64,000 nt of DNA, taken from the NCBI GenBank assembly GCA_964508135.1, contig CAZDSU010000040.1, forward strand, positions 5 to 64,004, in the 5' to 3' direction. Under the pieces are notes generated by a model. The model searched no databases, had not been told where the DNA came from, and saw only the letters and a list, made by a program, of their open reading frames with translations. Below are positions 1,726 through 52,328 of this stretch, piece by piece. The position numbers were made by a program, and so were the translations under genes. Source of the DNA: an uncultured Saprospiraceae bacterium (GTDB lineage: Bacteria; Bacteroidota; Bacteroidia; Chitinophagales; Saprospiraceae). The stretch's first letter is position 1. Each line of letters opens with the position of its first letter.

Positions 1726-1729
1726 AATA

Positions 1730-1812
1730 TTGCTGGATTGTTATTATTGTTGAATTGTTTTGGAGCCATGGCCAGCAATCCCAACAATCAAACAATAATA
1801 ACAATCCAGCAA
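1730..1812. repeat. Imperfect 30-bp inverted repeat built from CAATC/CAACAAT-type words
   Basis: The left arm ttgctggattgttattattgttgaattgtt (1730-1759) is the reverse complement of the right arm aacaatcaaacaataataacaatccagcaa (1783-1812), apart from mismatches in a short central stretch. It starts 5 nt after the fabH stop and has no T-tract. Confidence 0.85.
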
Positions 1813-1817
1813 TTAAT

Positions 1818-2533: not shown

Positions 2534-3061
2534 ATGACTTTTCAGGAAATCCAGGAGCTTATCCGGCTCCTCAACAAGTCCAACCTGGCCGAGTTCAAGA
2601 TGGAGGAGGGCGATTTCAAACTCTCCATCCGAACGGCATTGTATCGCGACACAAAAACAGCGCACGTTGTCGCAGCGCCAATTCAAATGGCAGCACCTAC
2701 CATGGGCAGCCCTGCGCCAGCAAGCCTGGTTCCCGCTGCCTCTCCAGCCCCGGCAGCAGAAGCCGCCTCCGAGAAACCTTCCGAGGCCGTTGCCAAGCCA
2801 GCTCAACCTTCTGGCCAAGTTTACAAAGAAATAAAGTCGCCAATGGTAGGCACTTTTTACCGCTCCGCCACACCGGAGAAGCCATCCTATGTTGAAATTG
2901 GGCAGAAAGTCAAAAAAGGCGACGTCGTCTGCATCATCGAAGCCATGAAGCTTTTCAACGAAATTGAAAGCGAAATCAGTGGCACCATCGTCAAGGTAAT
3001 GGTTGACAACGCCCAACCTGTTGAATACGACCAAGTACTTTTCCTCGTAGAGCCGGATTAA
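2534..3061 (+). CDS. accB: Acetyl-CoA carboxylase biotin carboxyl carrier protein
   Basis: The ORF is 2459..3061, and I take the start at internal ATG 2534 (MTFQEIQELIRLLNKSNLAEFKMEEGDFKLSIR). It has an Ala/Pro-rich linker and the biotinylation motif CIIEAMKLFNEIES. Confidence 0.9.
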   Translation: MTFQEIQELIRLLNKSNLAEFKMEEGDFKLSIRTALYRDTKTAHVVAAPIQMAAPTMGSPAPASLVPAASPAPAAEAASEKPSEAVAKPAQPSGQVYKEIKSPMVGTFYRSATPEKPSYVEIGQKVKKGDVVCIIEAMKLFNEIESEISGTIVKVMVDNAQPVEYDQVLFLVEPD

Positions 3062-3065
3062 CTTA

Positions 3066-3159
3066 ATAGACATTAGACGTAGACATTAGACATTAGATGG
3101 GGTATAGTGCCTTACAATGTCCGCTGTCTAATGTCTAATGTCTATCGTCCAATGTCTAT
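3066..3159. repeat. Inverted array of GACATTA heptamer words between accB and accC
   Basis: The left arm is atagacattagacgtagacattagacattagat (3066-3098). The right arm is gtctaatgtctaatgtctatcgtccaatgtctat (3126-3159), its imperfect complement. The right arm ends 1 nt before the accC ATG at 3161. Confidence 0.85.
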
Positions 3160-3160
3160 T

Positions 3161-4507
3161 ATGTTCGATAAAGTTCTCATAGCCAATCGTGGCGAAATAG
3201 CGCTGCGAGTCATACGCACTTGCCGCGAGATGGGCATCAAAACGGTGGCCATCTACTCCACCGCCGATGCCGACAGCCTACATGTCCGCTTTGCCGACGA
3301 AGCCGTTTGCGTCGGACCTCCACAGTCCAAGGATTCGTACCTGAACATACCCCGCATCATGGCAGCCGCCGAAATAACCAACGCTGATGCCATCCACCCC
3401 GGCTATGGTTTTTTGGCAGAAAATGCCGATTTCGCTGAAATCTGCGGCGAGTACGGCATCAAGTTCATCGGCCCTACGCCCTCGCAGATCCGCTCCATGG
3501 GCGACAAAATCACTGCCAAAACCACCATGATTGCCGCAGGTGTGCCAGTCGTGCCCGGTTCCGGCGGCCTCATCTCCGATGTCAAAGAGGGCATTGGCCT
3601 TGCCAAGGAGATAGGCTACCCGGTCATCATCAAGGCAACTGCGGGCGGCGGCGGCAAGGGCATGCGCATCATTTGGGACGAAGCCTCTTTTGAATCCAAC
3701 TGGAACATGGCCCGCAACGAGGCTAAGGCTTCCTTCGGCAACGATGGCATCTACATGGAAAAATACATTGAAGAGCCACGTCACATAGAGTTCCAGATAG
3801 TGGGCGACCAGTACGGTACGGTCTGCCACCTCTCCGAGCGGGAGTGCAGCATCCAGCGCCGCCACCAGAAACTGGTGGAAGAAAGCCCCTCACCGTTCAT
3901 GACCCCAGAGCTTCGCCAAAAAATGGGCGATGCCGCCATCAAAGCAGGGCAGGCCATCAACTACGAGGGCGTCGGCACCATAGAGTTCTTGGTGGACAAG
4001 TACCGTAATTTTTACTTCATGGAAATGAACACCCGCATCCAGGTGGAGCATCCGGTGACGGAGGAGGTGATTGACCATGATTTGATAAAAGAACAATTGA
4101 AAGTGGCCATGGGCGAGCCAATTACCGGCAAGAATTACTACCCAGAAATGCACGCCATGGAGTGCCGCATCAACGCCGAAGACCCCTACCGGGACTTCCG
4201 CCCATCGCCCGGCAAAATCATTTCCCTGCACACCGCCAAGGGCCACGGCGTCCGGGTGGACACGCACGTGTACGCCGGATACGTCATCCCGCCCTACTAC
4301 GACTCCCTCATTGCAAAACTCATCTGCCGCGCCCGCACCCGCGACGAGTGCATCACGAAAATGGAACGGGCCCTCGAAGAATTCATCGTGGAAGGCGTCA
4401 AGACGACAATCCCTTTCCACAAAAAACTGATGAAAGACGAGAATTTTAGGTCTGGGAACTTCCACACTGGGTTCTTGAACGATTTTGATTTGGGAACGGA
4501 AGACTGA
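3161..4507 (+). CDS. accC: Acetyl-CoA carboxylase biotin carboxylase subunit
   Basis: The ORF is 3107..4507, and I take the start at ATG 3161 ([33 protein letters not shown]). It has the ATP-grasp glycine loop [12 protein letters not shown] and [14 protein letters not shown]. The upstream 18 codons of the ORF read through the repeat. Confidence 0.93.
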
Positions 4508-4512
4508 AAATA

Positions 4513-4582
4513 ACTGTGAACTATGAATTGTGAACTGTGAACGGGCGAACAGTTCACAATTCACCGTTCACCATTCACAGTT
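4513..4582. repeat. Inverted array of CTGTGAA heptamer words between accC and pcm
   Basis: The left arm actgtgaactatgaattgtgaactgtgaac (4513-4542) pairs imperfectly with the right arm gaacagttcacaattcaccgttcaccattcacagtt (4547-4582). The element starts 6 nt after the accC stop and ends 2 nt before the ATG at 4585. Confidence 0.85.
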
Positions 4583-4584
4583 CG

Positions 4585-5351: not shown

Positions 5352-6701
5352 ATGGCGCAGTTAGAACTGATAATGCCCAAAATGGGCGAGAGCATCATGG
5401 AAGCCACCATACTGAAGTGGGCAAAAAAAGTGGGCGACCGAGTAGAAGCCGACGAAACCATCCTCGAAATTGCTACCGACAAGGTGGACTCCGAGGTGCC
5501 TTCCCCTACCGCAGGCGTCATCGCTGAAATCTTTTTCAAGGAAAACGACGTGGTACCCGTTGGCAAGGCCATTGCCATCATCGCCACCGACGGTGAGGCC
5601 GTTGCTCCCAAACCATCGCCAGCCTTGAAGGAGGAGCCAATTCCCGCAGCCGCTTCCAACGGCCATTCCAACCTCACTGTGGCAAACGGCGTGACCCATG
5701 CTGCGCAACCCGCAAACAGAGAAGCTGCTCCATCCGTTGCGCTTGAGGGCCCTGCAATACCTGGCCGCTTCTACTCACCTTTGGTAAAAAACATCGCCAA
5801 GGCAGAGAATATCAGCGCCGCGGAGCTGGAACGCATACCCGGCTCGGGCCAGCTGGGGAGGGTGACCAAGCAGGACATTCTGGCTTATGTTGAAACCCGA
5901 CATACTCCGGTAGCCGACCTCCAGCCAGTAGCCCAATCACCAATTCCCAATTCCCAATCCCCAACACCCAAGCCCGCCGTCAGCGTCTCCGGCAACGTGG
6001 AAATCGTGGAGATGGACCGGATGCGCAAGCTCATCGCCGACCACATGGTGATGTCGAAGCAAACATCGCCGCACGTGACCAGTTTCGTGGAAGTGGACGT
6101 GACGAACCTCGTCAACTGGCGGGAGCGCAACAAGGCAGTTTTTGAGAAAAAATATGGGGAAAAAATCACCTTCACGCCCATCTTCGTTGAGGCCGTAGCC
6201 AAAGCCATCAGCGACTTCCCGATGGTCAACGTCTCCGTGGACGGCAACCGCATCATCGTCAAGAAAGACATAAACGTCGGCATGGCCACTGCCCTGCCGA
6301 GCGGCAACCTCATTGTGCCCGTCATCAAAAATGCCAATACACTAAACCTCGTCGGCCTCACCAAGGCCGTGAACGACCTTGCTGGCCGTGCCCGCCAAGG
6401 CAAGCTCAAGCCCGAGGAAATACAGGACGGCACCTTCACGCTCACCAACGTTGGCACCTTCGGCAACGTGATGGGCACGCCAATCATTAACCAGCCGCAG
6501 GTGGCCATCATGGCTGTAGGTGCTATCCGCAAAAAGCCCGCTGTGGTGGAGACGGAGTACGGAGACCTGATTGCTATTCGCCAAATGATGTTCCTCTCCA
6601 TGAGCTACGACCACCGGGTAGTGGACGGTTCGCTTGGCGGTTCCTTCATCCGCCGGGTCGGGGATTATTTGGAACAGTTTGATGGGAAAAGAGAGGTTTG
6701 A
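5352..6701 (+). CDS. 2-oxoacid dehydrogenase complex E2 (dihydrolipoamide acyltransferase)
   Basis: 449 aa. It has an N-terminal lipoyl domain (EIATDKVDSEVPSP), a peripheral-subunit-binding domain (SPLVKNIAKAENISAAELERIPGSGQLGRVTKQDILAYV) and a catalytic domain (SMSYDHRVVDGSLGG). Substrate specificity cannot be told from sequence alone. Confidence 0.87.
   Translation: MAQLELIMPKMGESIMEATILKWAKKVGDRVEADETILEIATDKVDSEVPSPTAGVIAEIFFKENDVVPVGKAIAIIATDGEAVAPKPSPALKEEPIPAAASNGHSNLTVANGVTHAAQPANREAAPSVALEGPAIPGRFYSPLVKNIAKAENISAAELERIPGSGQLGRVTKQDILAYVETRHTPVADLQPVAQSPIPNSQSPTPKPAVSVSGNVEIVEMDRMRKLIADHMVMSKQTSPHVTSFVEVDVTNLVNWRERNKAVFEKKYGEKITFTPIFVEAVAKAISDFPMVNVSVDGNRIIVKKDINVGMATALPSGNLIVPVIKNANTLNLVGLTKAVNDLAGRARQGKLKPEEIQDGTFTLTNVGTFGNVMGTPIINQPQVAIMAVGAIRKKPAVVETEYGDLIAIRQMMFLSMSYDHRVVDGSLGGSFIRRVGDYLEQFDGKREV
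5932..5969. repeat. CCCAAT(T/C) word run inside the E2 interdomain linker
   Basis: cccaatcaccaattcccaattcccaatccccaacaccc encodes AQSPIPNSQSPTP. The same word (cccaattccc) builds the palindrome inside aroB at 9509-9565. Confidence 0.7.
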
Positions 6702-8626: not shown

Positions 8627-8705
8627 GGGTTAGGAGGTTTTGAGGGTTTTGAAGGTTTAGAGGGTCGTGATTAAACCTTCTAAACTTCCTAAACCTTCTC
8701 AACCC
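8627..8705. repeat. Inverted array of GGTTTnGA-type words in the kmo/aroB divergent spacer
   Basis: The left arm is gggttaggaggttttgagggttttgaaggtttagagggt (8627-8665). The right arm is aaaccttctaaacttcctaaaccttctcaaccc (8673-8705), an imperfect complement. Confidence 0.8.
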
Positions 8706-8746
8706 ATTCAAGTTTTGCCCCAAAACTAGGACGTTTTTGGTGAAAA

Positions 8747-9868
8747 ATGCCCGCCCAATTGCTAATCTTGCGCATGTTTATACTTCATCTAAACGAGTAC
8801 GAAATTTCCATCGGGGAAATGGGGCAGCCGCTCCGATCGCTGGTTGCCGGAAGCAACTACACGAAAATCGCCGTGCTGGTGGACGCCAACACCCGCCGTC
8901 ATTGCTTTCCCTATTTCTTACAAAGCATTGATTTTGAGGTAGTTGCCATCGAAATACCCACAGGGGAACGGTTCAAGAACCTCGACATTTGCAGCTTCAT
9001 CTGGTCTGAAATGATGCGCCACGGCCTCGACCGCCGCTCGCTGCTCATCAACCTCGGCGGTGGTGTCATTGGCGACATGGGCGGCTTTTGCGCTGCCACC
9101 TACCTGCGGGGCATTGACTTCGTGCAGGTGCCCACAACCCTCCTCTCGCAAGTGGACGCCTCGGTCGGCGGCAAGGTGGCCATTGATTTCAACGGCGTAA
9201 AAAACAGCATCGGCGTCTTCCAAAACCCCAAGGCCGTGTTGGTTGACCCCGTTTTTTTGAAAACCCTGCCCCTCACCGAAATCCGAAGTGGCTTCGCCGA
9301 GGTGTTCAAGCATGCGCTGATCGCCGATGCAGCGCAGTGGCAGGACTTGCAGCAAATCACCGACCTGATGGTGGTGGACTGGGCGAAGTTCCTCGCCCCC
9401 TCATTGTCCATCAAAAAACGCATCGTGGAGGAAGATCCGCTCGAAGGTGGCATCCGCAAGGCACTGAATTTTGGACATACCATCGGACATGCAGTGGAAA
9501 GCCATGTTTTGGGAATTGGGAATTCTAGCTCCCAATTCCCCATTTCCCCATTTCCCAATTCCCAACTATCGCATGGCGAAGCTGTTGCCTTGGGCATCGT
9601 CTGCGAGAGTTGGCTGTCGCACAAACTGTTGGGGCTTTCCTCAGCGGAACTGGGCGAGATAGTTGCGTTCGTGCGACGGTTTTACCCCCACCATCCGCTT
9701 GCAGAAAGGGACTTTCCAGCCATTTTTGATTTGATGAAAAAAGACAAGAAAAATGTGGGCGGTCGCATCAATTTCACGCTGTTGTCTGTCATTGGGCGGG
9801 CGAGGATTGACCAATATTGTGGGGTTGTGGTGATTGAGGAGAGTTTGCGGTTTTATAGGAGTTTGTAA
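8747..9868 (+). CDS. aroB: 3-dehydroquinate synthase
   Basis: 373-aa ORF with LINLGGGVIGDMGGFCAATYLRGIDFVQVPTTLLSQVDASVGGK and the metal-binding block LNFGHTIGHAVE...HGEAVALG. The start is uncertain (ATG 8747 or 8774). It contains an in-frame repeat insertion, listed as the next feature. Confidence 0.85.
   Translation: MPAQLLILRMFILHLNEYEISIGEMGQPLRSLVAGSNYTKIAVLVDANTRRHCFPYFLQSIDFEVVAIEIPTGERFKNLDICSFIWSEMMRHGLDRRSLLINLGGGVIGDMGGFCAATYLRGIDFVQVPTTLLSQVDASVGGKVAIDFNGVKNSIGVFQNPKAVLVDPVFLKTLPLTEIRSGFAEVFKHALIADAAQWQDLQQITDLMVVDWAKFLAPSLSIKKRIVEEDPLEGGIRKALNFGHTIGHAVESHVLGIGNSSSQFPISPFPNSQLSHGEAVALGIVCESWLSHKLLGLSSAELGEIVAFVRRFYPHHPLAERDFPAIFDLMKKDKKNVGGRINFTLLSVIGRARIDQYCGVVVIEESLRFYRSL
9509..9565. 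repeat. Palindromic CCCAATT-word element embedded in frame in aroB
   Basis: The sequence is ttgggaattgggaatt-ctagct-cccaattccccatttccccatttcccaattcccaa. The core gggaattggg (9511-9520) pairs perfectly with cccaattccc (9531-9540). It encodes GIGNSSSQFPISPFPNSQ between the two His-containing metal-site blocks. Confidence 0.8.
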
Positions 9869-9875
9869 ATAAGGC

Positions 9876-10298
9876 TTACAATACGGGCGGATGGCGATGA
9901 ATCTCTTGTAAATTAGCTCGCAGTTCAATCAACTTAGGGCGGTTCAGTTGCAATGCATCAATAGTCGCCCGTCCGGTGGGCGTGAGGCCGATTAGGTGGA
10001 GCGGATCGGTGTCCCAAGCAAAATGTTCCTGCCATTTTTGTTTGCGTGGGTTAAAGAGCGAAACGGTCAAGCCCGTGACTTCATCAATTGCCGTTGTTTT
10101 ATTGTACTTGTGGGAATTACAGCCCCTGCAGCAATTAGCAGCGTTTTCAAGTACCGTTAAGCCACCATGGCTCTCTGGTATGATATGGTCCAACTCAAAA
10201 GATTGGGTGGAAAAAGCCGCTGGGCTGAGGCAATACTCGCACCGAAAATGGGCGAGCTTGGCAAGTTCGGTTTTGAGGTCAGTTAGCAGCTTGCTCAT
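9876..10298 (-). CDS. HNH endonuclease (small stand-alone type)
   Basis: 140 aa. The HNH core is CEYCLSPAAFSTQSFELDHIIPESHGGLTVLENAANCCRGCNSHK, followed by LFNPRKQKWQEHFAW...GLTPTGRATIDALQLN. This is a layout I recall from small cyanobacterial/Bacteroidota HNH proteins. Confidence 0.85.
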   Translation of the reverse strand: MSKLLTDLKTELAKLAHFRCEYCLSPAAFSTQSFELDHIIPESHGGLTVLENAANCCRGCNSHKYNKTTAIDEVTGLTVSLFNPRKQKWQEHFAWDTDPLHLIGLTPTGRATIDALQLNRPKLIELRANLQEIHRHPPVL

Positions 10299-10702
10299 GC
10301 AGCTATTGATTGGTTCAAGCCCAATTGTTCCATCAAGTCCTCCACAGAAATACCCCTGAGTCGAGAGAGTTCAATCATGGATTTTAGCCAGTCGGCATTG
10401 TGCCCTTCAGCCGTTTCGACCAATGCCAGCAATTCTTGATGTTCCGCTGGAGTGAGGCTTTCATTTTTAAGTTTGGCATTTAGCAAGTCATATCTGCGCT
10501 GGATTTTTACTTTCAGCGGTTCGTAGATTTTCTTCAACAGTTCTAGTTCCCGCTCGGTGGGCTTTGGTGCTTTTCGGCGGGCCAGCAAATACCCAAGCCT
10601 GTCCATGAACTTCTCCAAGTCCTCCGTCCCCATTTGGGTAGCCCCCTTCAAAAGGTCTTCAAAGCCAACTTTTACGCCTTTTTTGATTTCTATCGTTTGC
10701 AT
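10295..10702 (-). CDS. Hypothetical helical protein, upstream partner of the HNH endonuclease
   Basis: The ORF is 10295..10846. I take the start at the ATG complementing 10700-10702 (MQTIEIKKGVKV...), because a -7 box lies 20 nt upstream and the longer N-terminus looks non-coding. Its stop overlaps the HNH start by 4 nt (ATGA). I recognise no catalytic motif. Confidence 0.6.
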   Translation of the reverse strand: MQTIEIKKGVKVGFEDLLKGATQMGTEDLEKFMDRLGYLLARRKAPKPTERELELLKKIYEPLKVKIQRRYDLLNAKLKNESLTPAEHQELLALVETAEGHNADWLKSMIELSRLRGISVEDLMEQLGLNQSIAA

Positions 10703-10721
10703 TGAAAAGTTATTTATAGGC

Positions 10722-10729
10722 CAAAAATA
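10722..10729 (-). promoter_or_regulatory. Candidate -7 promoter box for the partner/HNH cassette
   Basis: The minus strand reads TATTTTTG (TAnnTTTG), 19 nt upstream of the ATG at 10702. Confidence 0.4.
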
Positions 10730-10855
10730 GGTTTTTTTTAAAATAAAATCTGCGTTTACCCACCCATTCCGTTTCATCCGCATCCGCATCCTCCTCACTG
10801 GTTCATCATCAAAACCAATCCCGCCCCCACATGTTAAATATCCCATTCAAAATTC

Positions 10856-18444: not shown

Positions 18445-19260
18445 TCACGTGCGATCCTTCGAAAACAACTGCTTCACCGCAGAAACCACAAACCCCGACA
18501 AGTTCATGTACGGTGGTTTCATCAACAACTGCACCCCGGTCAGCCCGACCCAACCAGCCATGGCAGCAAACGACAGGTCACCGAAACGGGTGAAGCCTCG
18601 GAAGTCGTGCATGTTGAGCCGCATCAGTTCGTACATCACAAAATCGGTGACGATATAGGCGCTGTTCACCCAGAACAGCAGCAGCATGACTCGTAACATG
18701 CGCCGCAACACCAGCGCCTCGTAGAGCTGCTGGCCACCCTCCTGTTTTTTGCGGAGCGCCGAAACCTTAAACCGGATGTAACGGTACGCCGCAAACTGGT
18801 AAGTGTAAAAGGTGAAAATGTAAAGTGCCATCTCCAGCCCACCATAAAATGGCGAATAAAACCGCCGTATCAAAAGCCCATCCGTCAGCAGCCACGCACC
18901 GAGAAAATAGGCAAACTGCGTCAGCGGAAGCAGTGCATGTTTGGCGTCGCTGCCCACAAACTTGTAGGTAGGGAACAGCCGCAACTTCACCGAAATATAC
19001 AACAGCACCCCGAACGACAGGGTGAAATACAGTGGCAGCGAAGTCAGGTGCGGGTTGGCGTGGTAGATGCCCCGCAGGATGAAAATATGGTGCAGCGCCG
19101 TCAGGGCATAGGCCATCAACAGCCCGAAAAAAGCGAGGTCGGCCCGCTTGTTCTCGTTTTTGCGGAGCAAAAAAACGACGGCCACCGCCCCGTTCAGTGC
19201 GACCGTTGCGCAAAGAACCAGAAAGGACAAGGTGGTTAGCGTTCCGGTGAAGAAATTCAT
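18445..19260 (-). CDS. Hypothetical polytopic membrane protein
   Basis: 271 aa with about 7 hydrophobic segments and no recognisable soluble domain or catalytic motif. Confidence 0.55.
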   Translation of the reverse strand: MNFFTGTLTTLSFLVLCATVALNGAVAVVFLLRKNENKRADLAFFGLLMAYALTALHHIFILRGIYHANPHLTSLPLYFTLSFGVLLYISVKLRLFPTYKFVGSDAKHALLPLTQFAYFLGAWLLTDGLLIRRFYSPFYGGLEMALYIFTFYTYQFAAYRYIRFKVSALRKKQEGGQQLYEALVLRRMLRVMLLLFWVNSAYIVTDFVMYELMRLNMHDFRGFTRFGDLSFAAMAGWVGLTGVQLLMKPPYMNLSGFVVSAVKQLFSKDRT

Positions 19261-19341
19261 TGTTGAATTGCTATATTGTTGAATTGCTATATTGTTGAAT
19301 TGCTATAAAACAATACAACAATATAGCAATTCAATAATCAA
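19260..19341. repeat. Three perfect tandem 16-mers (TTGTTGAATTGCTATA) plus a complementary arm
   Basis: The copies are at 19260-19275, 19276-19291 and 19292-19307. The complementary arm is caatacaacaatatagcaattcaataatcaa (19311-19341). The element fills the spacer between the PBP4 stop and the membrane-protein start. Confidence 0.9.
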
Positions 19342-20690
19342 TTTCCCTCGTACACCCCCTTCAGCACCCGCTCCATTTCCTTGCGGAGTGCGCTCATGCT
19401 GCCGGTGTAGTTGTTGTGCATGAAGCTGAAAATCAGGAGCTTGCCTTTTTTTGAAATCAGGTAGCCGCTCAGGTTGTGGTTATTACGGAGCGTACCGGTT
19501 TTGGCGAAAATATAGGGAGTGCCGCCATTGCGATAGTAGTCCTTGATGGTGCCATTGACGCCCCCGGCTGGGAAGATGCCAAACAGCCTCTCCCTCGGCA
19601 CCATTTGCTGGATTTTGCTCAGCAATGCCACCAATGAGCGGGGCGTCACGAGGTTGTACCTCGACAGACCGGAGCCATCCACCCATTTTGGCTCGTCGGG
19701 CAGGTCGTTGAGCAGGTTTTTCTTCGCAAAATCAATGGCCTGCTCGGTGTTCATCGTCCCAGTTCGCTGCCAGGAGCAGAGCAGCAGCAGTTGCTCCGCA
19801 ATGAAATTGTCGCTCTCCTGCATCATCAACGTGTAGAGGCTGTCTGCCTTGAGGCTGTACAGCGTTTTGGCGTCGGGAGGTGGCAACATGTTTGATTCCA
19901 GTAGGCTCACTTGTCGCTTGAGTGTGTCGGCCAGCACTTCGGTAATAAAGTGGGGCGTGGCATGAAACGGTACGTGCATCTCGAACTTCTTCCCGGTTTT
20001 GGCCAAAGTGTTTAGGGTAAACTGGTTCTCGTATTCAACCCGCCCGACGAAATCGTCTTCGTGGAGGGTTGAGTCATAATCGAGCGTTTTTGCCAAAAAA
20101 GCGGGCTTAACCTGAATGCCTCCTGTCGTGTCATTTTGGATAAAATGAGCGACATTAGCGTAAATGGGCAGCGGCGTTTTTTCCGATTGATAGTCGTAAA
20201 AATTGTCGTCCCACATCCAGCCAGAGCCATAACGTTGATCCTTGTAATTGGCGGGGCAGAACAGCAGTTGCTCCCGGCTGTTTTTCAAAAAATCAAAGAC
20301 CTGCGGGTTCTGCGTCAAGTGCGGGTTCAGAAAGCTGGGGTCGCCCGTGCCCCAGAACACGAGCAGGTTGCCTTGGCGGCTGTACTGCAATGCGGGTATG
20401 GAGTCGCCAAGTGTGCGCAGACTGGTGTACAGCGTCAGGATTTTTGTGTTGGAAGCTGGCGTGAAATACTTGTCAGCGTTGAACTCGTAGAGTGTTTTGC
20501 CCTCGGCGGGATCGTAGAGCGAAAACCCCGTGAACGCCTTTTTGAAAACTTCGGAGTCTTCGAGGTGGAGGTCATAAACCTTGGCTTCGACAGTCTCTTT
20601 TTCGGCTTTTTTCTTTTTGTTTTTTTGGCAAAAAGCACTGAAGGGCAGCAGCAGCGCCGTGGCGAAAAGTAGGAGGGTGAGTTTTTTCAT
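19338..20690 (-). CDS. dacB: D-alanyl-D-alanine carboxypeptidase/endopeptidase (PBP4, peptidase S13)
   Basis: 450 aa with a signal peptide. It has the SxxK motif in TPASNTKILT and the KTG motif in FAKTGTLRNNHNLSGY. Confidence 0.82.
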   Translation of the reverse strand: MKKLTLLLFATALLLPFSAFCQKNKKKKAEKETVEAKVYDLHLEDSEVFKKAFTGFSLYDPAEGKTLYEFNADKYFTPASNTKILTLYTSLRTLGDSIPALQYSRQGNLLVFWGTGDPSFLNPHLTQNPQVFDFLKNSREQLLFCPANYKDQRYGSGWMWDDNFYDYQSEKTPLPIYANVAHFIQNDTTGGIQVKPAFLAKTLDYDSTLHEDDFVGRVEYENQFTLNTLAKTGKKFEMHVPFHATPHFITEVLADTLKRQVSLLESNMLPPPDAKTLYSLKADSLYTLMMQESDNFIAEQLLLLCSWQRTGTMNTEQAIDFAKKNLLNDLPDEPKWVDGSGLSRYNLVTPRSLVALLSKIQQMVPRERLFGIFPAGGVNGTIKDYYRNGGTPYIFAKTGTLRNNHNLSGYLISKKGKLLIFSFMHNNYTGSMSALRKEMERVLKGVYEGN

Positions 20691-20760: not shown

Positions 20761-23700
20761 GTGGATACTTCCTACCTTTGCCCCGTGAGCAACCTCGACC
20801 GCATTCTTGCACTCTACCGAGACGACCAGCGCACCCAAAAACTCGTGGAAGCGCTTCGTTCAAAATCAACACCGACCGTCGTTCAACTCAACGGATTGGC
20901 TGGTGCGCAGGAAGCCTTTGTCCTCGCCGGAGCCTACCTCGCCGACCCAAGGCCGCAGCTTTTTATCGCCATTGACAAGGAGGAGGCAGCCTACATGCAA
21001 AACGACCTCTCCGGCTTGCTGGAAAAAAAGCCTGTGCGCTTCTTTCCCGACTCCTTCAAGCGGCCCATGTACTTCGAGGAACTGAACACGACGAACGTGC
21101 TGGAAAGGACGGAAGCGATTAACAAAATCAGCTCCCCGACGGGCAGTCCGGAGATTTTGGTCACTTACCCCGAAGCACTGTTTGAAAAAGTCGTTGCGCC
21201 AGCGGAACTCGAAAAGACCCGCATCGAAATACAGCCGGGGCAAAAATTGGACGTGGATTTTACCATCGAAATGCTCGTGGAGTATGGTTTTCGGCGAGAG
21301 GATTTCGTGTACGAACCCGGCCAGTTCAGCATCCGTGGCGCTATCGTGGACATTTTCAGCTACGGAAACGACTACCCCTACCGCATCGAGCTCTTCGACG
21401 AGGACGTGGAGAGCATCCGCACCTTCGACCCGCTCACGCAGCTATCCGTGCAGAACATCGGGCGGGTGAGCATCGTGCCGAACATCAACACCAAGTTCAA
21501 TCGCTCGCAAAAAGTCTCTCTGCTCAACGTGCTGGCGCCCAACACGGTCATTTGGGTCAAAGACTGGAATGCTTTGGAGGAAAAGCTCCAGCTCTGTTTT
21601 GAAAAAGCCGAGGAGTTTTCCAAAACGCTCCCCCTGATGGACGAGAGCGAGCTGGGGGAAATATTTAGGGACAGGGCATTTATTCGCCCCCATGAAGTCG
21701 TGGAAGATGTGGCAAAATTCTCTCAGGTTTTGCTTGGCCCTGGACTCAAATCCTCAAATCCTCAAATCCTCAAATTCTCTTCAAAGACCCAACCCTCCTT
21801 CAACAAAAACTTCCAGCTTCTTGGCAACAACCTGCGGAGCAACACCGAGGAGCGCATCGAGAACTTCATTTTCACCGACAACCCCAAGCAAATCGAGCGC
21901 TTCCACGCCATTTTCGAGGATATGGCCGAGGCAGTGGGCAGCGTCAAATTCGAGCCAGTCATCAAGGCCATCCACGAGGGGTTCATTGACCTCGACCTGA
22001 AAGTTGCTTTTTACACCGACCACCAGATTTTCCAGCGACACCACCACTACAAGTTGCGGCAGGGCTTCACGGCAGACAGGGCGCTGAACGTCAAACTGTT
22101 GCGGGAACTGCAACCGGGCGACTTCGTGGTGCATATTGACCACGGGGTAGGCAAATACAGCGGCCTTGAGAAAATCACCGTCAACGGCCACACGCAGGAG
22201 TCGGTGCGCATTTTTTACAAAAACAACGACGTGCTCTACGTGGGCATCAACTCGTTGCACAAAATATCGAAGTACAGCAGCAAGGACGGTACGCCGCCCA
22301 CGCTCAACAAGCTCGGATCCGACACTTGGCAGACGATGAAGAGCAAGGCCAAGAAGAAGGTCAAGGACATTGCGAAGGAGCTTATCAAGCTGTATGCGCT
22401 GCGCAAAGCCTCGCCGGGCCACGCCTTCCCGCCCGACAATTACCTGCAAGCCGAACTCGAAGCCTCGTTCATTTACGAAGACACGCCTGACCAAGAAAAG
22501 GCGACCATTGACGTGAAGGAGGACATGGAAAAGCCCTACCCTATGGACCGCCTCATCTGCGGCGACGTGGGTTTTGGGAAAACGGAAGTGGCCATCCGGG
22601 CGGCGTTCAAGGCGGTGACCGATGGCAAACAAGTGGCCATTCTCGTGCCGACGACCATCCTCGCCTTACAGCACTACAAGACGTTTAGCGACAGGCTTGC
22701 GCAATTCAAACTCAATATCGAGTACGTCAACCGCTTTAAGTCAGCGAAGGAGAAAAAGGAGATTTTTGAAAATACGAAGGCGGGCAAGGTGGACATTTTA
22801 ATTGGGACACACGCCCTGCTGAGTGCCGATTTGAAGTTCAAGGACCTGGGCTTGCTGGTCATTGACGAAGAGCAAAAATTCGGCGTGACGGCCAAGGAAA
22901 AGCTGCGCAACCTGAAGGTGAACGTGGACACACTGACGCTGACGGCCACGCCGATTCCCCGTACCCTCCAGTTCTCGCTGATGGCTGCCCGTGACCTGAG
23001 CATCATACGCACCCCGCCGCCCAACCGCCAGCCCATCCACACCGAAATCAGGGTGCTGCACGAGACGCTCATCAAGGACGCCATTTACAAAGAGGTACAT
23101 CGGGGCGGACAGGTGTTCTTTGTGCATAATCGGGTGAAAACGCTGGCCGATATGGCTGGCCTCATCAAGCGCCTCTGTCCCGATGTGGACGTGGCCACGG
23201 CGCACGGCCAGATGGAGAGCGACCATTTGGAAAGTACCCTGCTGGATTTTATTGACAAAAAATACGACGTGCTCGTCTGCACGAACATCATCGAAACGGG
23301 CCTCGACATCCCGAACGCCAACACGATGATCATCAACTCGGCCAACGAGTTTGGCCTCAGCGACCTGCACCAGTTGCGGGGCCGCATCGGTCGCTCGAAC
23401 AAAAAGGCATACTGTTACCTGTTTGCGCCGCCGATGTCCGTGCTCACGCACGACGCCCGCAAGCGCCTCAAGACCATCGAGGAGCACAACGACCTTGGTT
23501 CGGGTTTTGAAATCGCCATGCGTGACCTCGACATCCGGGGGGCGGGCAACCTGCTCGGCTCAGAGCAGAGCGGCTTCATCGCCGACATAGGTTACGAAAC
23601 CTTCCAGCGCATCCTCGAAGAGGCGGTGCAGGAGCTGAAGGAGACCGATTTCAAGGATGTTTTCAAAGAGGATTTGGAGAAAAAACAGGCTTTCGTGCGG

Positions 23701-24165
23701 GACGTGAACGTGGACACGGACGTGGAAATGCACATCCCCAGCGACTACGTGAGCAGCACCAGCGAGCGCCTGTTGCTGTACACGGCCATTGACGATATTC
23801 AGTCCGAGGATGAGCTACAGCTTTTCAGCGAAAACCTGAAAGACCGCTTCGGCCCTGTGCCAGAACCCGTGCTTGAGCTTTTCGACGGCCTGCGCCTCCG
23901 CTGGATTGCAAGGGAGCTTGGCTTCGAACGGGTCATTCTGAAAGACAGCAAGTTGCGCTGCTATTTCGTGGAGAACCCACAGTCTCCGTTTTACGATAGT
24001 GCCACCTTCCAGCAGGTGTTCCAATACCTTTCCAAGCATGGCGAGCAGATGCAGATTACTTTGAAGAAATCCGTTCGCAGCTTGATTATGGCGAGGGACG
24101 GGGTACGGACTTTGTCGGGGGCGAGGAAGTTGTTGGAAGGGGTAAGGGGGAAGGCGATTTCGTAG
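20761..24165 (+). CDS. mfd: Transcription-repair coupling factor
   Basis: 1134 aa. It has the RNAP-interaction region, the DEAD-box helicase motifs GDVGFGKTEVA and LLVIDEEQKFG, the later motifs LTLTATPIPRT and HQLRGRIGRS, and a TRG/C-terminal domain. The start is uncertain (GTG 20761 or GTG 20785). Confidence 0.95.
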   Translation: MDTSYLCPVSNLDRILALYRDDQRTQKLVEALRSKSTPTVVQLNGLAGAQEAFVLAGAYLADPRPQLFIAIDKEEAAYMQNDLSGLLEKKPVRFFPDSFKRPMYFEELNTTNVLERTEAINKISSPTGSPEILVTYPEALFEKVVAPAELEKTRIEIQPGQKLDVDFTIEMLVEYGFRREDFVYEPGQFSIRGAIVDIFSYGNDYPYRIELFDEDVESIRTFDPLTQLSVQNIGRVSIVPNINTKFNRSQKVSLLNVLAPNTVIWVKDWNALEEKLQLCFEKAEEFSKTLPLMDESELGEIFRDRAFIRPHEVVEDVAKFSQVLLGPGLKSSNPQILKFSSKTQPSFNKNFQLLGNNLRSNTEERIENFIFTDNPKQIERFHAIFEDMAEAVGSVKFEPVIKAIHEGFIDLDLKVAFYTDHQIFQRHHHYKLRQGFTADRALNVKLLRELQPGDFVVHIDHGVGKYSGLEKITVNGHTQESVRIFYKNNDVLYVGINSLHKISKYSSKDGTPPTLNKLGSDTWQTMKSKAKKKVKDIAKELIKLYALRKASPGHAFPPDNYLQAELEASFIYEDTPDQEKATIDVKEDMEKPYPMDRLICGDVGFGKTEVAIRAAFKAVTDGKQVAILVPTTILALQHYKTFSDRLAQFKLNIEYVNRFKSAKEKKEIFENTKAGKVDILIGTHALLSADLKFKDLGLLVIDEEQKFGVTAKEKLRNLKVNVDTLTLTATPIPRTLQFSLMAARDLSIIRTPPPNRQPIHTEIRVLHETLIKDAIYKEVHRGGQVFFVHNRVKTLADMAGLIKRLCPDVDVATAHGQMESDHLESTLLDFIDKKYDVLVCTNIIETGLDIPNANTMIINSANEFGLSDLHQLRGRIGRSNKKAYCYLFAPPMSVLTHDARKRLKTIEEHNDLGSGFEIAMRDLDIRGAGNLLGSEQSGFIADIGYETFQRILEEAVQELKETDFKDVFKEDLEKKQAFVRDVNVDTDVEMHIPSDYVSSTSERLLLYTAIDDIQSEDELQLFSENLKDRFGPVPEPVLELFDGLRLRWIARELGFERVILKDSKLRCYFVENPQSPFYDSATFQQVFQYLSKHGEQMQITLKKSVRSLIMARDGVRTLSGARKLLEGVRGKAIS
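20773..20780 (+). promoter_or_regulatory. Candidate -7 box (TACCTTTG) inside the longest mfd ORF
   Basis: tacctttg lies 4 nt upstream of in-frame GTG 20785. If it is functional, mfd starts at 20785 on a near-leaderless mRNA. Confidence 0.3.
21745..21776. repeat. Four tandem octamers CTCAAAT(C/T) in frame inside mfd
   Basis: ctcaaatc ctcaaatc ctcaaatc ctcaaatt encodes LKSSNPQILKF. Confidence 0.85.
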
Positions 24166-31432: not shown

Positions 31433-34411
31433 TCACTCCCGAATGATAGCATCGTACACCGCATCCTGCACCTTCACACGCGTGTTCAGCTTCGTCAATT
31501 TGTTGTTCTTCATGCTAGGAAAAGTGCGGTTGGAGAGGAAGACGTAAATCAGTTCCTCCTTCGGGTCAACCCAGACGGCAGTGCCGGTGAAACCGAGGTG
31601 GCCGAAAGTAGCCTCGCTGGCCTTCGTCGAGAGGTTGTTCTCAAAATGCGTATTGTGCTCGAACATGTCGAAACCGATGCCCCTGCGGGTGCAGCCTTTG
31701 CAGCGGGTGGTGTAGTAGTTGATGGTCTCTGGGCGCAGGTATTGCATCCCGGCGTAGCTGCCCTTGTTCAGGAGCATTTGCATGAGTACGGCCAAATCCT
31801 CGGCGTCGCTGAATAGCCCGGCGTGGCCTGTGGCTTGGTTGAGCATGGCAGCGCCCATGTCGTGCACATAGCCTTGGATGCGGCGATCCCGGAAATAATT
31901 GTCGTTTTCCGTGGGTGGTATGCGTTCCAGCGGGAACTTCTCGTAGGGGCGGTAGGTCATGGTCTGGAGGCCGAGCGGCTGGTAAAAATTTTGCTTAGCA
32001 AAATCTTCGATGGGCATTCCGCTTTGCCGCTCCACGATTTCCCCGGCGATGTAGAAACCGAGGTCGCTGTACCTGTATTCCTTCGATGGGTCCAGCGGGC
32101 TGTCCATGATTTCTTGCCAGATTTCCTTTTCGTAGCCCGCCTTCAGCCAGAGGTTTTTTGCCACGGGCATTGGGAAGGCATTGCTTTTTTTGGTTTGGTA
32201 AAAATTGGGCGAAGGCTTGGCGGAAATGGTGATGGTTTTTTCATAAAACTTAATCCACGGCATCAGCCGCCCCCGGTGGGTCATCATGTCCACGAGTGGT
32301 ATGCCCTTTTTGTTCGTATTGGCGAACTCCGGCAGGTACTTTTCCACGGGGTCTTTCGGGTCAAATTTGCCGTCTTCCTGCAACCGCATCAGCGAGATGG
32401 TGCTGGCCGCAATCTTCGTGATGCTCGCCAAGTCCCAGATGTCGTCCGGCTCGGTGGGGTGAGCGTTTTTGTCGTAGGTGTGATGGCCGTACGACTTCCT
32501 CCAAACGATTTTTCCCCGCCTCGCCACCAGCACCACACCGCCGGGCAATGCGCCTTCAGCAATTGCTTCGGCCATCAGTCCGTCCACTTTTTCCAGCTTG
32601 CTGCTGCTCACGCCCACCTCCTCGGGTACGCCGTAGCCGAGCCGTTCGACGGCCTCCGTGGCGATACCCGTGCCAGCGGGCAATTGCGCCGAAGCGGTCA
32701 CGGGCAGCTTTCCCCGCAGGGGAAACACGCCAAAAAGCGCTTGCGCAGCCAAGTCCTGCACCTCGTCATCTTCCTCGTAGCAAACCAGCAGGTTCGGCAC
32801 GTTTTCAAAAAACTTGGCGGCGTAGGGGTTGCCAAACATCACCAGCACCACACGGGTTTGCTTGCGCAATGCCTCAATAAAATCCTTCGTGCCCTGCGTC
32901 AGCCCGTAACCTTTCGAGGCGAACTGGCTCATGTCGTGCAGGCTTACAATTACAGCGTCCTTGTCTTTCAGCCTCGCAATCAGCGAACTGGAAATGTCCT
33001 TGCCGGAGGTGAACGTCTCTATTTTTCCGAAGGAACTTAGTCTTTTGTGAAACGAATTGCCGCTTCCTGCCCCAATTGCCAGCGCTGCCAATCTAGCAGG
33101 CCCTAACTGCACACTGCCAACTGTCGAACTGCCAACTGGAAGAAAACTGTCGTCATTCTTCGCCAAGGTCAGCGCATTCGCAATCAACTCCCGCTTGACA
33201 GCGAGGGCAGGTGCATCGTTCACGTCGGCTCGCACATTTTCGAGGGGCATTGGCTGGTAGCTGGTGATGCCCATTCGGTGCTTCCAAAGCAGCACTTTTT
33301 TCACGCTGGCATTCACGGCATTGGAGTCGAGCTTGCCATTGGTTAGCCACTGTTTCACGGTACGGAAGGCGGCGTCCACATCGCCGGGGAGGAGCAGCAC
33401 GTCGTTGCCAGCGGCAAGGGCACGGGCCTCCACCTCGCCCTTGCCGAAGTGCTTGGTCACGGCCTGCATTTCGAGGGCATCGGTGAGGATGAGGCCCTTG
33501 AAATTCAGCTTGTTGCGTAGCAAATCCGTCACCACCTTGGGCGAAAGCGACGATGCCAAATTGGGTGTGCTGTCGAGCGCAGGCACGTTCAAGTGGGCAA
33601 TCATCACGCTGCCCACGCCCTGTCGGATTAGGATTTTGAAGGGGAAAAGCTCTACGCTGTCGAGGCGCCCGATGGAGTGGTTGATTTGGGGCAGGTCGTA
33701 GTGGCTGTCGGTGCCTGTGTCGCCGTGGCCGGGGAAGTGCTTGGCGGAGGCCATCACGCCGTTGTCCTGCATCCCGAGCATGTACTGGTAGGCTTTTGCG
33801 GCCACGTTGTACGGGTCTTCGCCGAAGCTGCGAAATCCGATGACGGGATTGGCGGCGTTGTTGTTCACGTCAGCCACTGGTGCAAAGTTGACGTTGACGC
33901 CGACCCGCTTGCAGTGCTTCGCAATCTCGGCGCCCATGCGGTAAATTAGCGTGTTGTCTTGGATGGCACCGAGCATCATTTGGTGGGGAAAGCTCATGGC
34001 CGTGCCCCGCATCCTCATGCCGAGGCCCCACTCGCCGTCAATGGTGATGAACATGGGCAGTTTGGTGCTCAGGGCTTGGTAGCGGTTGGTGAGTTCGACC
34101 TGTTTTTCGGGTGTGCCTTTGGCCGTGGGGTTGAAGAAGCAAAGGCCGCCGGGCTGGTATTTTTTCACGAGGTTTTCCACGGCTGCTTCGTATTCCGAGT
34201 CCTTGTCGGTGTGCGCTCGCAGCCAGAAGAGCTGTCCGAGGCGCTCGTCGGTGGTGAGGGTGGCGTAGGCGCTGTCCACCCAAGCGGTCTCTTGCAGGTG
34301 CTTCTCGAAGCTGGGCATTGGCTGGGCTGCCTGCCGAGTGAAGGACGTGGCAGACACCAGTAGATAGGCCAACGCAATGAGGAGGAGTGAAAAGGTCTTT
34401 TTCAAAATCAA
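31433..34411 (-). CDS. GH3 beta-N-acetylhexosaminidase (NagZ-like) fused to a serine beta-lactamase/PBP-like hydrolase domain
   Basis: 992 aa. GH3 blocks are FITIDGEWGLGMR and AKHFPGHGDTGTDSH. The C-terminal half carries an SxxK motif (ASITKIAAST) of class C beta-lactamase-type esterases. The start looks like a TTG. Confidence 0.86.
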   Translation of the reverse strand: MILKKTFSLLLIALAYLLVSATSFTRQAAQPMPSFEKHLQETAWVDSAYATLTTDERLGQLFWLRAHTDKDSEYEAAVENLVKKYQPGGLCFFNPTAKGTPEKQVELTNRYQALSTKLPMFITIDGEWGLGMRMRGTAMSFPHQMMLGAIQDNTLIYRMGAEIAKHCKRVGVNVNFAPVADVNNNAANPVIGFRSFGEDPYNVAAKAYQYMLGMQDNGVMASAKHFPGHGDTGTDSHYDLPQINHSIGRLDSVELFPFKILIRQGVGSVMIAHLNVPALDSTPNLASSLSPKVVTDLLRNKLNFKGLILTDALEMQAVTKHFGKGEVEARALAAGNDVLLLPGDVDAAFRTVKQWLTNGKLDSNAVNASVKKVLLWKHRMGITSYQPMPLENVRADVNDAPALAVKRELIANALTLAKNDDSFLPVGSSTVGSVQLGPARLAALAIGAGSGNSFHKRLSSFGKIETFTSGKDISSSLIARLKDKDAVIVSLHDMSQFASKGYGLTQGTKDFIEALRKQTRVVLVMFGNPYAAKFFENVPNLLVCYEEDDEVQDLAAQALFGVFPLRGKLPVTASAQLPAGTGIATEAVERLGYGVPEEVGVSSSKLEKVDGLMAEAIAEGALPGGVVLVARRGKIVWRKSYGHHTYDKNAHPTEPDDIWDLASITKIAASTISLMRLQEDGKFDPKDPVEKYLPEFANTNKKGIPLVDMMTHRGRLMPWIKFYEKTITISAKPSPNFYQTKKSNAFPMPVAKNLWLKAGYEKEIWQEIMDSPLDPSKEYRYSDLGFYIAGEIVERQSGMPIEDFAKQNFYQPLGLQTMTYRPYEKFPLERIPPTENDNYFRDRRIQGYVHDMGAAMLNQATGHAGLFSDAEDLAVLMQMLLNKGSYAGMQYLRPETINYYTTRCKGCTRRGIGFDMFEHNTHFENNLSTKASEATFGHLGFTGTAVWVDPKEELIYVFLSNRTFPSMKNNKLTKLNTRVKVQDAVYDAIIRE

Positions 34412-34658
34412 GCCGTTGTATTGAAGGGGCTAAGTTAAGATGATTTGGCGATGGGACGGTTTTTTGACATTGTGAAACATGGCATTTCATCTTTGAAAAT
34501 CTAAAATTTGAATTTAAATTTTCAAGGATGAAATGCCTCAATGAAACCCCAAACATTGTCAACGGGGAGTGGACTCCCACGATTTTGGATGCAATGGTTG
34601 CCACGAATTTTATCAATTTTCACGGATAATTATGCCCATGTTTGCTCCGCAATAATTT

Positions 34659-44937: not shown

Positions 44938-45032
44938 TGGTCGCCCAATTTATTGGCAACCGTATGTGCCGGGTTTCAATCTCAAAAAAACCAATAATAT
45001 CCATCGGTCTGCCCAATAAATTGGGCGACCAC
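44937..45032. repeat. 96-bp unit bounded by perfect 20-bp terminal inverted repeats (MITE-like)
   Basis: gtggtcgcccaatttattgg (44937-44956) is the exact reverse complement of ccaataaattgggcgaccac (45013-45032). The core is 56 bp. The unit begins at the last base of the esterase stop codon and ends 11 nt before the SDR ATG. Confidence 0.85.
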
Positions 45033-45043
45033 AATGCCTCACC

Positions 45044-51042: not shown

Positions 51043-51103
51043 GGTTTGGTTTCAGGTTTAAAGTTTCAGGGTAGGCCCTGTCTGAAACCTGAAACCCAAA
51101 ACC
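51043..51103. repeat. Inverted array of GTTTCAGG words
   Basis: The left arm is ggtttggtttcaggtttaaagtttcaggg (51043-51071). The right arm is ccctgtctgaaacctgaaacccaaaacc (51076-51103). It lies in the divergent spacer upstream of the phosphoesterase gene. Confidence 0.8.
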
Positions 51104-51121
51104 TGGAACCGCTTAAACAGC

Positions 51122-51871: not shown

Positions 51872-51902
51872 TTGTTTGATTGTTAAATTGCTTGATTGTT
51901 GG
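51870..51902. repeat. Left arm of the inverted repeat enclosing the four-helix-bundle gene
   Basis: The reverse complement of gattgtttgattgttaaattgcttgattgttgg matches 52298-52328 at about 29 of 31 positions. The arm overlaps the phosphoesterase stop codon. Confidence 0.8.
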
Positions 51903-51919
51903 ACTGCAAAACAACTACT

Positions 51920-52300: not shown

Positions 52301-52328
52301 CAATCAAGCAATCTAACAATCAAGCAAT
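52294..52328. repeat. Right arm of the inverted repeat enclosing the four-helix-bundle gene
   Basis: The arm is ccaataacaatcaagcaatctaacaatcaagcaat. It overlaps the stop codon of the enclosed gene and ends 3 nt before the aminotransferase ATG. Confidence 0.8.

Follow-up and report, generated by a model that had tools for sequence, protein, structure and literature searches.

An in-frame inverted pair of heptanucleotide arrays within aroB of an uncultured Saprospiraceae bacterium

A 64-kb stretch of DNA from an uncultured Saprospiraceae bacterium (hereafter the window; coordinates below are window positions unless another locus is named) contains an aroB gene, encoding 3-dehydroquinate synthase (DHQS), whose reading frame passes through a palindromic element built of heptanucleotide repeats. 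The identity of the open reading frame (ORF) is supported by Pfam, by matches in the Protein Data Bank (PDB), by homologue alignment, and by an AlphaFold2 model that was then compared by Foldseek. A Pfam scan covering six window ORFs detected PF01761 (DHQ_synthase) and PF24621 (DHQS_C) in aroB (1e-44 and 1e-30), the sequence matches PDB entry 3okf (E = 3e-54), and the model, computed from a 41-sequence alignment, resembles the same structure with a template modelling (TM) score of 0.82. The true start of the gene is probably ATG 8774 (MFILHLNEY...), where the homologues begin. The features of the gene and its element are as follows.

8747-9868, plus strand: aroB (3-dehydroquinate synthase) ORF, 373 aa
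9509-9565, plus strand: the element, an inverted pair of heptamer arrays forming 19 in-frame codons (LGIGNSSSQFPISPFPNSQ, residues 255-273)
9509-9522, plus strand: left arm, (TTGGGAA)x2, delimited by a repeat search, Tandem Repeats Finder (TRF), and comparison with the relative L007
9523-9529, plus strand: non-repeat centre, TTCTAGC, the same in the closest relative (L014)
9530-9565, plus strand: right array, TCCCAAT TCCCCAT TTCCCCAT TTCCCAAT TCCCAA, of mixed 7- and 8-nt units, the last 14 nt of which (9552-9565) are the right arm of the stem

The initial annotation of this DNA had described a palindromic CCCAATT-word element lying in frame in aroB, between the GHTIGHAVE and HGEAVALG blocks of the enzyme, and both its nature and its placement are borne out. 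The element (TTGGGAATTGGGAATTCTAGCTCCCAATTCCCCATTTCCCCATTTCCCAATTCCCAA, 57 nt) sits between the blocks GHTIGHAVES and HGEAVALG and consists of whole codons. The repeat search recovered a perfect 14-nt inverted repeat (TTGGGAATTGGGAA and TTCCCAATTCCCAA, 9509-9522 and 9552-9565) with a 29-nt spacer, an inner perfect 11-nt pair (9511-9521 and 9530-9540), and a direct-repeat family of TCCCAAT/CCCCATT words (9530-9574); CCCAATT/CCCCATTT words are present besides the 14-nt arms. TRF resolves the left side (9509-9524) as a period of 7 with 2.3 copies and 100% matches, and the right side (9530-9565) as a period of 8 or 7 with 3.8-4.9 copies and 86-90% matches. The first left-arm unit (TTG GGA AT, Leu-Gly-Ile) overlaps codons that are also found in relatives poor in arrays (in L007, TCA TTG GGA ATC; TTGGGAATC). 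A search for further copies of the word, as that annotation had proposed, was productive: the window has 17 occurrences of GGGAATTGGG with at most one mismatch where 7.7 +/- 2.7 would be expected (0 of 100 shuffles), five of them inside the element and three in a second array at 5939-5962, within the gene for a 2-oxoacid dehydrogenase E2 subunit.

The inverted build gives the element a pronounced potential for secondary structure. The RNA of positions 9503-9571 is predicted to fold at -20.7 kcal/mol, compared with -10.1 +/- 2.1 for dinucleotide shuffles (z = -5.0; none of the 200 shuffles was as good), and at -30.6 kcal/mol when flanks are included (z = -3.8). On the minus (template) strand, positions 9530-9565 read TTGGGAATTGGGAAATGGGGAAATGGGGAATTGGGA, in which five tracts of three to four G separated by 4-nt loops constitute a G-quadruplex motif; an oligonucleotide that would carry this candidate motif is GGGAATTGGGAAATGGGGAAATGGGGAATTGGG. 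With at least four G3 tracts and short loops on one strand, the array would, at the level of the motif, fall among the GGGANTN quadruplex repeats.

In the protein, the element occupies a position between two conserved segments. Among 41 homologues, E185 is invariant and H244, H248, and H276 are at least 90% conserved; by homology to solved DHQS, H244/H248 and H276 are taken here to be metal ligands. The AlphaFold2 model (mean predicted local distance difference test score, pLDDT, of 85) places H244/H248 on a helix of residues 244-255 and H276 on a helix of residues 276-295, with residues 256-275 between them modelled as coil and residues 259-271 below a pLDDT of 50. The insert is accordingly modelled as a disordered loop joining the two helices that bear the conserved histidines. 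The earlier suggestion of a tolerated surface loop stands to the extent that a disordered loop between two confident helices is predicted; it presumably lies at the surface. Counted from E[ST] to HGE, the loop has 23 residues in the window AroB and 10 residues in 72 of the 120 best protein homologues, and in an alignment the AroB of Vibrio cholerae is shorter at this point by 15 residues (two gaps, of 14 residues and of 1 residue), so the net insertion amounts to 13-15 residues and not 19. The insert-spanning peptide of the window AroB is predicted to include ...ALNFGHTIGHAVESHVLGIGNSSSQFPISPFPNSQLSHGEAVALGIVCESWLSHK.

The extra segment of about 15 residues, which had been suspected to be lineage-specific, is indeed without a counterpart in solved DHQS structures or in the distant Saprospiraceae loci whose loop could be read (L012, L013, L015, L016, L018, L022, and L060), where the loop is short, at 30 nt, and contains no repeat. 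The 10-residue outgroup form reads ES-FSLKTDKPLL-HGE. One Saprospiraceae metagenome-assembled genome (CBDCVJ01, the source of L012 and L013) encodes AroB twice; the two proteins share 61% and 59% identity with that of the window, and each has a 10-residue loop. In all 22 closest homologue clusters (at least 73% identity) the loop is 18-55 residues long, and loop DNA taken from 12 close species-level genomes (with L014 handled separately, via DNA alignment) reveals heptamer arrays at the same site in every member of the close clade, whose aroB DNA is ~75-85% identical. If the landing in a coding sequence envisaged by the initial annotation is taken as recent, it is contradicted by this distribution, and an artefact is ruled out by the presence of arrays at the same site in independent assemblies from different studies. 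The arrays differ among the relatives as follows.

L001 and L011: GATTGCG-GATTGGG-GATTTCG-GATTTCG ... (AATCCGA)x4, folding at -40 and -48 kcal/mol
L002: a homogenised right arm of AATCCGC units
L003: GAAATTG ... CCCAATTT
L010: (GATTGCG)x4 ... AAATCCG, then AATTCCC units
L004, L006, and L007: a right-hand array of the CCAATCA/AATCACT type only, with no hairpin
L005 and L034: arms that are not complementary
L008 and L009: a ~105-nt palindrome bounded by terminal inverted repeats (TIRs), that sits within the loop of the hairpin and is itself translated, so that the protein loop has 53-55 residues

The words of the left arm form a series of single substitutions (GGGAATT, GGGGATT, GCGGATT, TCGGATT), and the left arms of the window and L001 are equal at 13 of 16 positions in a register set by eye. 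This stepwise series and this match argue that the aroB arrays are homologous and not independent arrivals of unrelated elements. A neighbour-joining tree with bootstrap, built from aroB only, is star-like within the clade, with support of 1-47% at most nodes; since the tree has no resolution there, neither the order nor the polarity of the array changes can be given.

The closest species representative (L014, JADJYH010000004.1) is 91-98% identical in DNA over BLAST segments and 94% over most of aroB, and it shares the window's version of the aroB element, including the central TTCTAGC. Its aroB lacks 60 nt that include the GHTIGHAVE block (L014 10650-10790), in a deletion flanked by GTGGA direct repeats, and contains several small indels; the NCBI annotation gives only a 214-aa product. 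The gene is either a pseudogene or an assembly error, and the 'tig' naming of the contig looks like that of a long-read assembly. The use of L014 as a reference for microevolution was dropped, since errors of assembly are not separable from real decay in its indels, and it serves here solely as evidence that the element is shared.

The nested element of L008 (9490-9605) and L009 (3162-3270) has TIRs of ~20 nt (CCCCTGCC[T/C]CCTAAA... / ...CCCCTTTAGGGGTCAGGGG) and is in frame. It was considered as a repeated mobile element in its own right, a candidacy that was rejected when a search with its termini gave one copy per locus only. Tandem heptanucleotide repeats of cyanobacteria are known as short tandemly repeated repetitive (STRR) sequences, and Elhai is said to have described, in 2008, small dispersed repeats nested in heptamer arrays.

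The coding context leaves a clear imprint on which arrays are found at this site. A 7-nt unit is not a whole number of codons, so consecutive units pass through all three reading phases; even so, each of the 12 orthologue loci whose loop could be read has its downstream HGEAVA block in frame. Those words found as complementary pairs in aroB (GGGAATT, GATTTCG, GATTGCG, GAAATTG, and their complements) are free of stop codons in any phase and in both orientations. The words CCAATCA, CCATTCA, and AATCACT contain TCA, so that a complementary sense arm would hold TGA, and the orthologues with TCA-containing words are exactly those without a complementary arm. L006 and L034 have AATCACT arrays in which AATCACC stands where the usual unit would bring TAA into frame. 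Among the intergenic hairpin words sampled, by contrast, none is stop-free in both of its arms. Since approximately half of all heptamers are stop-free both ways, freedom from stops is to be understood as a filter and not as a rarity.

The retention of the insertion in all 22 closest homologue clusters and its location between two conserved histidine blocks (presumably the metal ligands in solved DHQS) could suggest that the peptide is an adaptive addition, e.g., a docking or regulatory loop beside the metal site. However, the length of this peptide varies from 18 to 55 residues, the homologue alignment contains essentially no conserved positions in the insert beyond the periodicity imposed by the array, the loop is predicted to be disordered, and the amino acid sequence is dictated by a DNA word read in all three phases, all of which make an adaptive loop very improbable.

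A second alternative is that the nucleic-acid structure is functional, with an mRNA hairpin or a template-strand G-quadruplex modulating aroB, or with slippage by +/-7 nt switching the gene ON and OFF through frameshifts. Folding of the hairpins is very favourable (-20 to -48 kcal/mol), with fold z-scores of -4.6 to -6.6 (0 of 200 shuffles) in the window, L001, L002, L003, and L011; the five G-tracts of the minus strand have a parallel in the GGGAATC repeats that are reported to form quadruplexes (PMC4692102); the four perfect units in L001 and L002 should slip readily, and a 7-nt unit shifts the frame; and intergenic kin of the element located at or on start codons suggest regulatory use there. 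These properties are not shared across the clade, however. The z-score falls to -2.2 in L010 and to ~0 in L004, L006, and L007, where the hairpin is absent, the hairpin is weak in L005 and L034 by the same fold test, and the G-rich word is absent from most orthologues, so no structure is conserved at the aroB site. Slippage is disfavoured by the window's own arrays, which are short or imperfect (the left one has 2.3 perfect units and the right one mixes 7- and 8-nt units), the readable orthologue loci are uniformly in frame, and there is no obvious benefit in switching off an enzyme of the chorismate pathway. A functional structure or switch at this site is therefore considered unlikely.

The element is not an isolated occurrence, as the window contains 18 arrays of 7-9-nt units (2.8 per 10 kb, from one TRF setting), compared with 0.9-5.4 per 10 kb in close relatives. 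Among control loci fetched with the same protein, most of those from outside the Saprospiraceae have no arrays, the exceptions being Mucilaginibacter (0.5-2.9) and scattered others, and some other Saprospiraceae have several. A rough ORF call classes 90% of the window as coding, yet most of its arrays lie between genes or at their ends. At least six intergenic hairpins are built like the aroB element, from two inverted arrays of a word of 7-9 nt that is particular to the locus, and one further array lies in frame in the E2 gene.

1729-1813: intergenic hairpin of ATTGCT/ATTGTT words
3060-3165: intergenic hairpin of TAGACAT words, the outer stem of which (3146-3165) covers the accC start codon (ATG 3161-3163)
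4512-4583: intergenic hairpin of GTGAACT/GTGAATT words in the accC-pcm gap, with its end 2-3 nt ahead of the pcm ATG
8631-8706: intergenic hairpin of 9-nt words of the GGTTTTGAG / CTCAAAACC type, in the gap between KMO and aroB, which are divergent
19252-19345: intergenic hairpin of ATTGTTGA-ATTGCTAT words (a 16-nt double unit, three copies)
51045-51110: intergenic hairpin of GGTTTCA / TGAAACC words that stops 12 nt short of the ORF starting at 51122
5932-5975, plus strand: array CCCAATC ACCAATT CCCAATT CCCAATC CCCAA, in frame in the 2-oxoacid dehydrogenase E2 gene (ORF 5352-6701), with no inverted partner

By Pfam, the E2 array encodes residues ~193-208, in the linker between the E3-binding and catalytic domains. 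The E2 linkers of two orthologues are again encoded by heptamer arrays but built on different words, GGCAGTT in L008 (15586-15732) and GCAGTCG and CAATCCG in L010 (5123-5230). Further in-frame arrays occur in mfd (ORF 20761-24165), where CTCAAATC is repeated 4.4 times at 21745-21779 between the UvrB-interaction and RID domains, and in a glycoside hydrolase family 3 (GH3)/beta-lactamase fusion (ORF 31433-34411, minus strand), where AACTGCC is repeated 4.7 times at 33105-33138 between the GH3 N and C domains. Words recur within genomes: GGGAATT in the aroB and E2 genes of the window, GATTTCG at three loci of L001, and ATTGTT/ATTGCT at five or more loci of the window. In L001, the aroB word GATTTCG is also present in an array inside a 1026-aa minus-strand open frame and near the 5' end of that frame (2070-2105, 3075-3110).

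Beyond the window, an exact-pattern scan of metagenomes found 28 contigs (GC content 0.38-0.67) with GGGAATTGGGAA...TTCCCAATTCCC hairpins, many with more GGGAATN units on either side, and the five hairpins that were read by eye (L087, L088, L099, L104, and L106) all lie just upstream of an apparent start codon. Hairpins abutting start codons also recur in the relatives. Together with the shared architecture of the intergenic hairpins in the window, these exact GGGAATT hairpins agree with the initial description of the element as a repeat of an intergenic type. A scan of the whole window against Rfam at gathering thresholds returned no match, so the window hairpins belong to no described RNA family.

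Several other repeats and variable segments were observed. Between aroB and gcvP (9876-10846, minus strand) lie the gene for a 140-aa HNH endonuclease and, upstream of it, an ORF of 183 aa without a Pfam match; this stretch is a small variable island for which most relatives have no alignable DNA, and only L004 aligns, through part of it. On the other side of aroB, the 8631-8706 hairpin is absent in L002, L005, L006, and L009; in the KMO-aroB gap of L003 (8400-8590), a long-armed palindrome of ~190 bp (CATGAGGTGACATCTTTTTCC... / ...GGAAAAAGATGTCACCTCATG) replaces the 9-mer hairpin of the window, and the same gap in L004 has an extra insert of ~450 nt. A small ORF (51896-52300, plus strand) is bracketed by inverted octamer arrays of the TGATTGTT / AACAATCA type (51869-51900 and 52298-52328), ~400 nt apart, so that the pair encloses the whole gene. 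Two strong inverted repeats lack the tandem-word build, one at 44934-45035 (23-nt arms, ATAGTGGTCGCCCAATTTATTGG, with a 56-nt spacer) and one at 34481-34537 (25-nt arms with a 7-nt spacer).

Comparison of the window with L014 reveals whole intergenic hairpins that differ at the same sites. The coding arrays are kept, at 95% identity in E2 and 77% in aroB (the latter value probably includes assembly noise). For four intergenic hairpins the alignment reaches only 36-45%, their words being unrelated, while their flanks are 89-99% identical and their boundaries look the same in both genomes. A fifth (8631-8706) is 54% identical to L014 with flanks at 87%. The four pairs with unrelated words are the following.

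Window 1729-1813, L014 3028-3111
Window 3060-3165, L014 4350-4440
Window 4512-4583, L014 5780-5850
Window 19252-19345, L014 19860-19960

Upstream of accC, the word family of L014 (AGGTATG) is that of the distant relatives L006 and L010 (~20% diverged), and at the accC-pcm site the GAGTTAT of L014 matches L010 (L006 has a 3-kb insertion there and is not comparable). Since the L014 words match those of distant relatives, the window lineage is the one that recently replaced both hairpins flanking accC. The replacement hairpins at 1729-1813 and 19252-19345 use ATTGTT/ATTGCT, the commonest word in the rest of the window, and the word of L014 at the 1729-1813 site is the window's word at 51045.

These replacements, with whole hairpins differing at identical sites, bear on the alternative that a mobile, non-autonomous palindromic element, akin to the Rickettsia palindromic elements (RPEs), miniature transposable elements with inverted repeats (MITEs), or repetitive extragenic palindromes (REPs), transposed into aroB and has been carried in frame. 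Such an origin would suit a palindromic, in-frame element whose kindred are mostly intergenic and whose words are common to several loci of one genome, and the TIR-bounded element in the aroB hairpin of L008 and L009 shows that the site accepts insertions. Against it, the hairpins that share a word have no conserved consensus; those of the window that are built on the ATTGTT/ATTGCT word were seen to share neither ends nor loops, and this speaks against a classical MITE family. The flanks of the aroB element (CATGTT before it, CTATCG after it) share no direct repeat, so no target-site duplication is present at 9509/9565, the apparent TIRs are the arrays themselves, and no second copy of the 57-nt unit exists in the 64-kb window. 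The presence of related but different words at the same site in the orthologues fits vertical descent. The arms begin with TTGGG and end with CCCAA, with no GTAG/CGTC head, and the element is intragenic, unlike REPs and the REP doublets known as REPINs. RPEs measure ~150 bp and fall into about ten sequence families, each with a conserved encoded peptide (PMC10969869), and the aroB element, at 57 nt, is far below this size and encodes no conserved peptide; the null Rfam result for the window also speaks against a catalogued family. The likeness to RPEs drawn by the initial annotation consequently survives for the consequence, in that a palindromic repeat is tolerated in frame without disruption (the ORF is intact, the conserved blocks are present, and the fold is confident), and fails for the kind of element, given the low-complexity 7-8-nt units, the lack of a consensus, of separate TIRs, and of a target duplication, and the different words in the orthologues. 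Transposition of a mobile element into aroB is thus regarded as quite unlikely.

A possible, if doubtful, reading of the hairpin replacements is that the aroB insert is one product of an undescribed, lineage-wide process that rewrites hairpins of tandem 7-9-nt words at fixed genomic addresses. If this were so, a dedicated mechanism (e.g., hairpin-targeted copying, or a word-specific nucleic-acid-binding or nucleic-acid-synthesising activity) would colonise coding loops of AroB, E2, and Mfd, and this clade would offer a way to test how a single heptamer word comes to occupy many loci, a long-standing question.

The explanation favoured here, with a probability of roughly 0.7, is that the element consists of two tandem-repeat arrays of heptanucleotides, inverted relative to each other and in frame, and that it is a coding representative of a repeat class that is abundant in the lineage and a tolerated passenger with no enzymatic role. 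Its properties are those of heptanucleotide simple sequence repeats (SSRs), with at least two tandem units of 7-8 nt and complementary convergent arrays able to form a stem-loop. The array would have been established once, in the ancestor of the genus-level clade, within a length-tolerant loop between the two histidine-bearing helices of DHQS, and would since have changed in place through gain and loss of units by replication slippage, through point mutations spreading along an arm (concerted evolution), through loss of one arm, and through nested insertion. Slippage is suggested by the view of heptamer SSRs in the literature and by homogenisation within an arm, as in the right arm of L002. 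Selection would act only on the frame (a total length that is a multiple of three) and on the avoidance of stop codons, and the hairpin would be a by-product of the way the array is built, dispensable for aroB.

Four considerations weigh against this explanation. A single origin cannot be shown from the aroB tree, and a hotspot that was re-seeded independently is possible. Neutrality is inferred from variability and predicted disorder. The disrupted aroB of L014 could mean that the gene is dispensable or decaying in the lineage, an assembly error being possible as well. Finally, intergenic words can change faster than stepwise slippage easily explains, and the same process could operate in aroB.

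The passenger interpretation gives the element an interest beyond this gene. Non-triplet repeats are expected to be excluded from genes, yet here a 7-nt hairpin repeat persists over a genus-level span in a housekeeping enzyme, providing a natural experiment on the junk load that a protein loop can bear, on DNA repeat dynamics dictating a peptide, and on coding constraints selecting the words and hairpins that survive. Saprospiraceae are a third lineage, after Xanthomonas and Nostocales, with abundant heptamer-array hairpins, and comparison of orthologous sites in this clade can address the origin and turnover of such arrays.

In relation to known systems, the feature belongs to a known repeat class and is neither a new class nor a relative of the RPEs. 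Heptanucleotides are over-represented among long bacterial SSRs, according to the summary of Mrazek 2007 in PMC4679880. In Xanthomonas, (GGGAATC)n repeats form 70-75 convergent pairs per genome, have 7-11% of their copies inside genes, and vary in length and sequence between close relatives, and Nostoc PCC 7120 has (GGGGA[T/C]T)n heptamer repeats (Rehm et al. 2015, PMC4692102). The window arrays resemble these SSRs in the 7-nt units, the near-identical word (GGGAATT), the convergent pairing, the mostly intergenic location, the variation between relatives, and the quadruplex potential of the G-rich strand. They differ from them in that a pair lies wholly inside the gene of an essential-pathway enzyme, in frame and with both arms translated, in a Bacteroidota host, as well as in the use of many unrelated words per genome instead of one dominant word and in the occupation of the same coding site throughout a clade with turnover of the word.

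The TAACTGA direct repeats of Beggiatoaceae, Cyanobacteria, and five Bacteroidetes are found next to start codons (MacGregor 2015, PMC4679880), and are similarly matched by arrays just upstream of starts (accC and pcm in the window, and several of the metagenome GGGAATT hairpins), by the presence in some Bacteroidetes, and by stops in the word that limit overlap with genes. Whereas the TAACTGA arrays are almost all direct, employ a single stop-bearing word, and are excluded from forward coding, the arrays described here are paired and inverted, and those in coding sequence consist of stop-free words. The RPEs offer the precedent of a palindromic repeat in frame in unrelated metabolic genes, compatible with the fold by virtue of a permissive surface position, from which the aroB element departs in consisting of 7-nt units with no family consensus and with different sequences in the orthologues. 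REPs are extragenic imperfect palindromes of 20-40 nt that follow one consensus throughout the genome and begin with a conserved head, GTAG or CGTC (PMC3733652). The window hairpins recall REPs, bacterial interspersed mosaic elements (BIMEs), and the REPINs with their REP-associated tyrosine transposases (RAYTs) in being short, intergenic, hairpin-forming repeats, often at gene ends, and differ from REPs in being low-complexity arrays of locus-specific words without that head.

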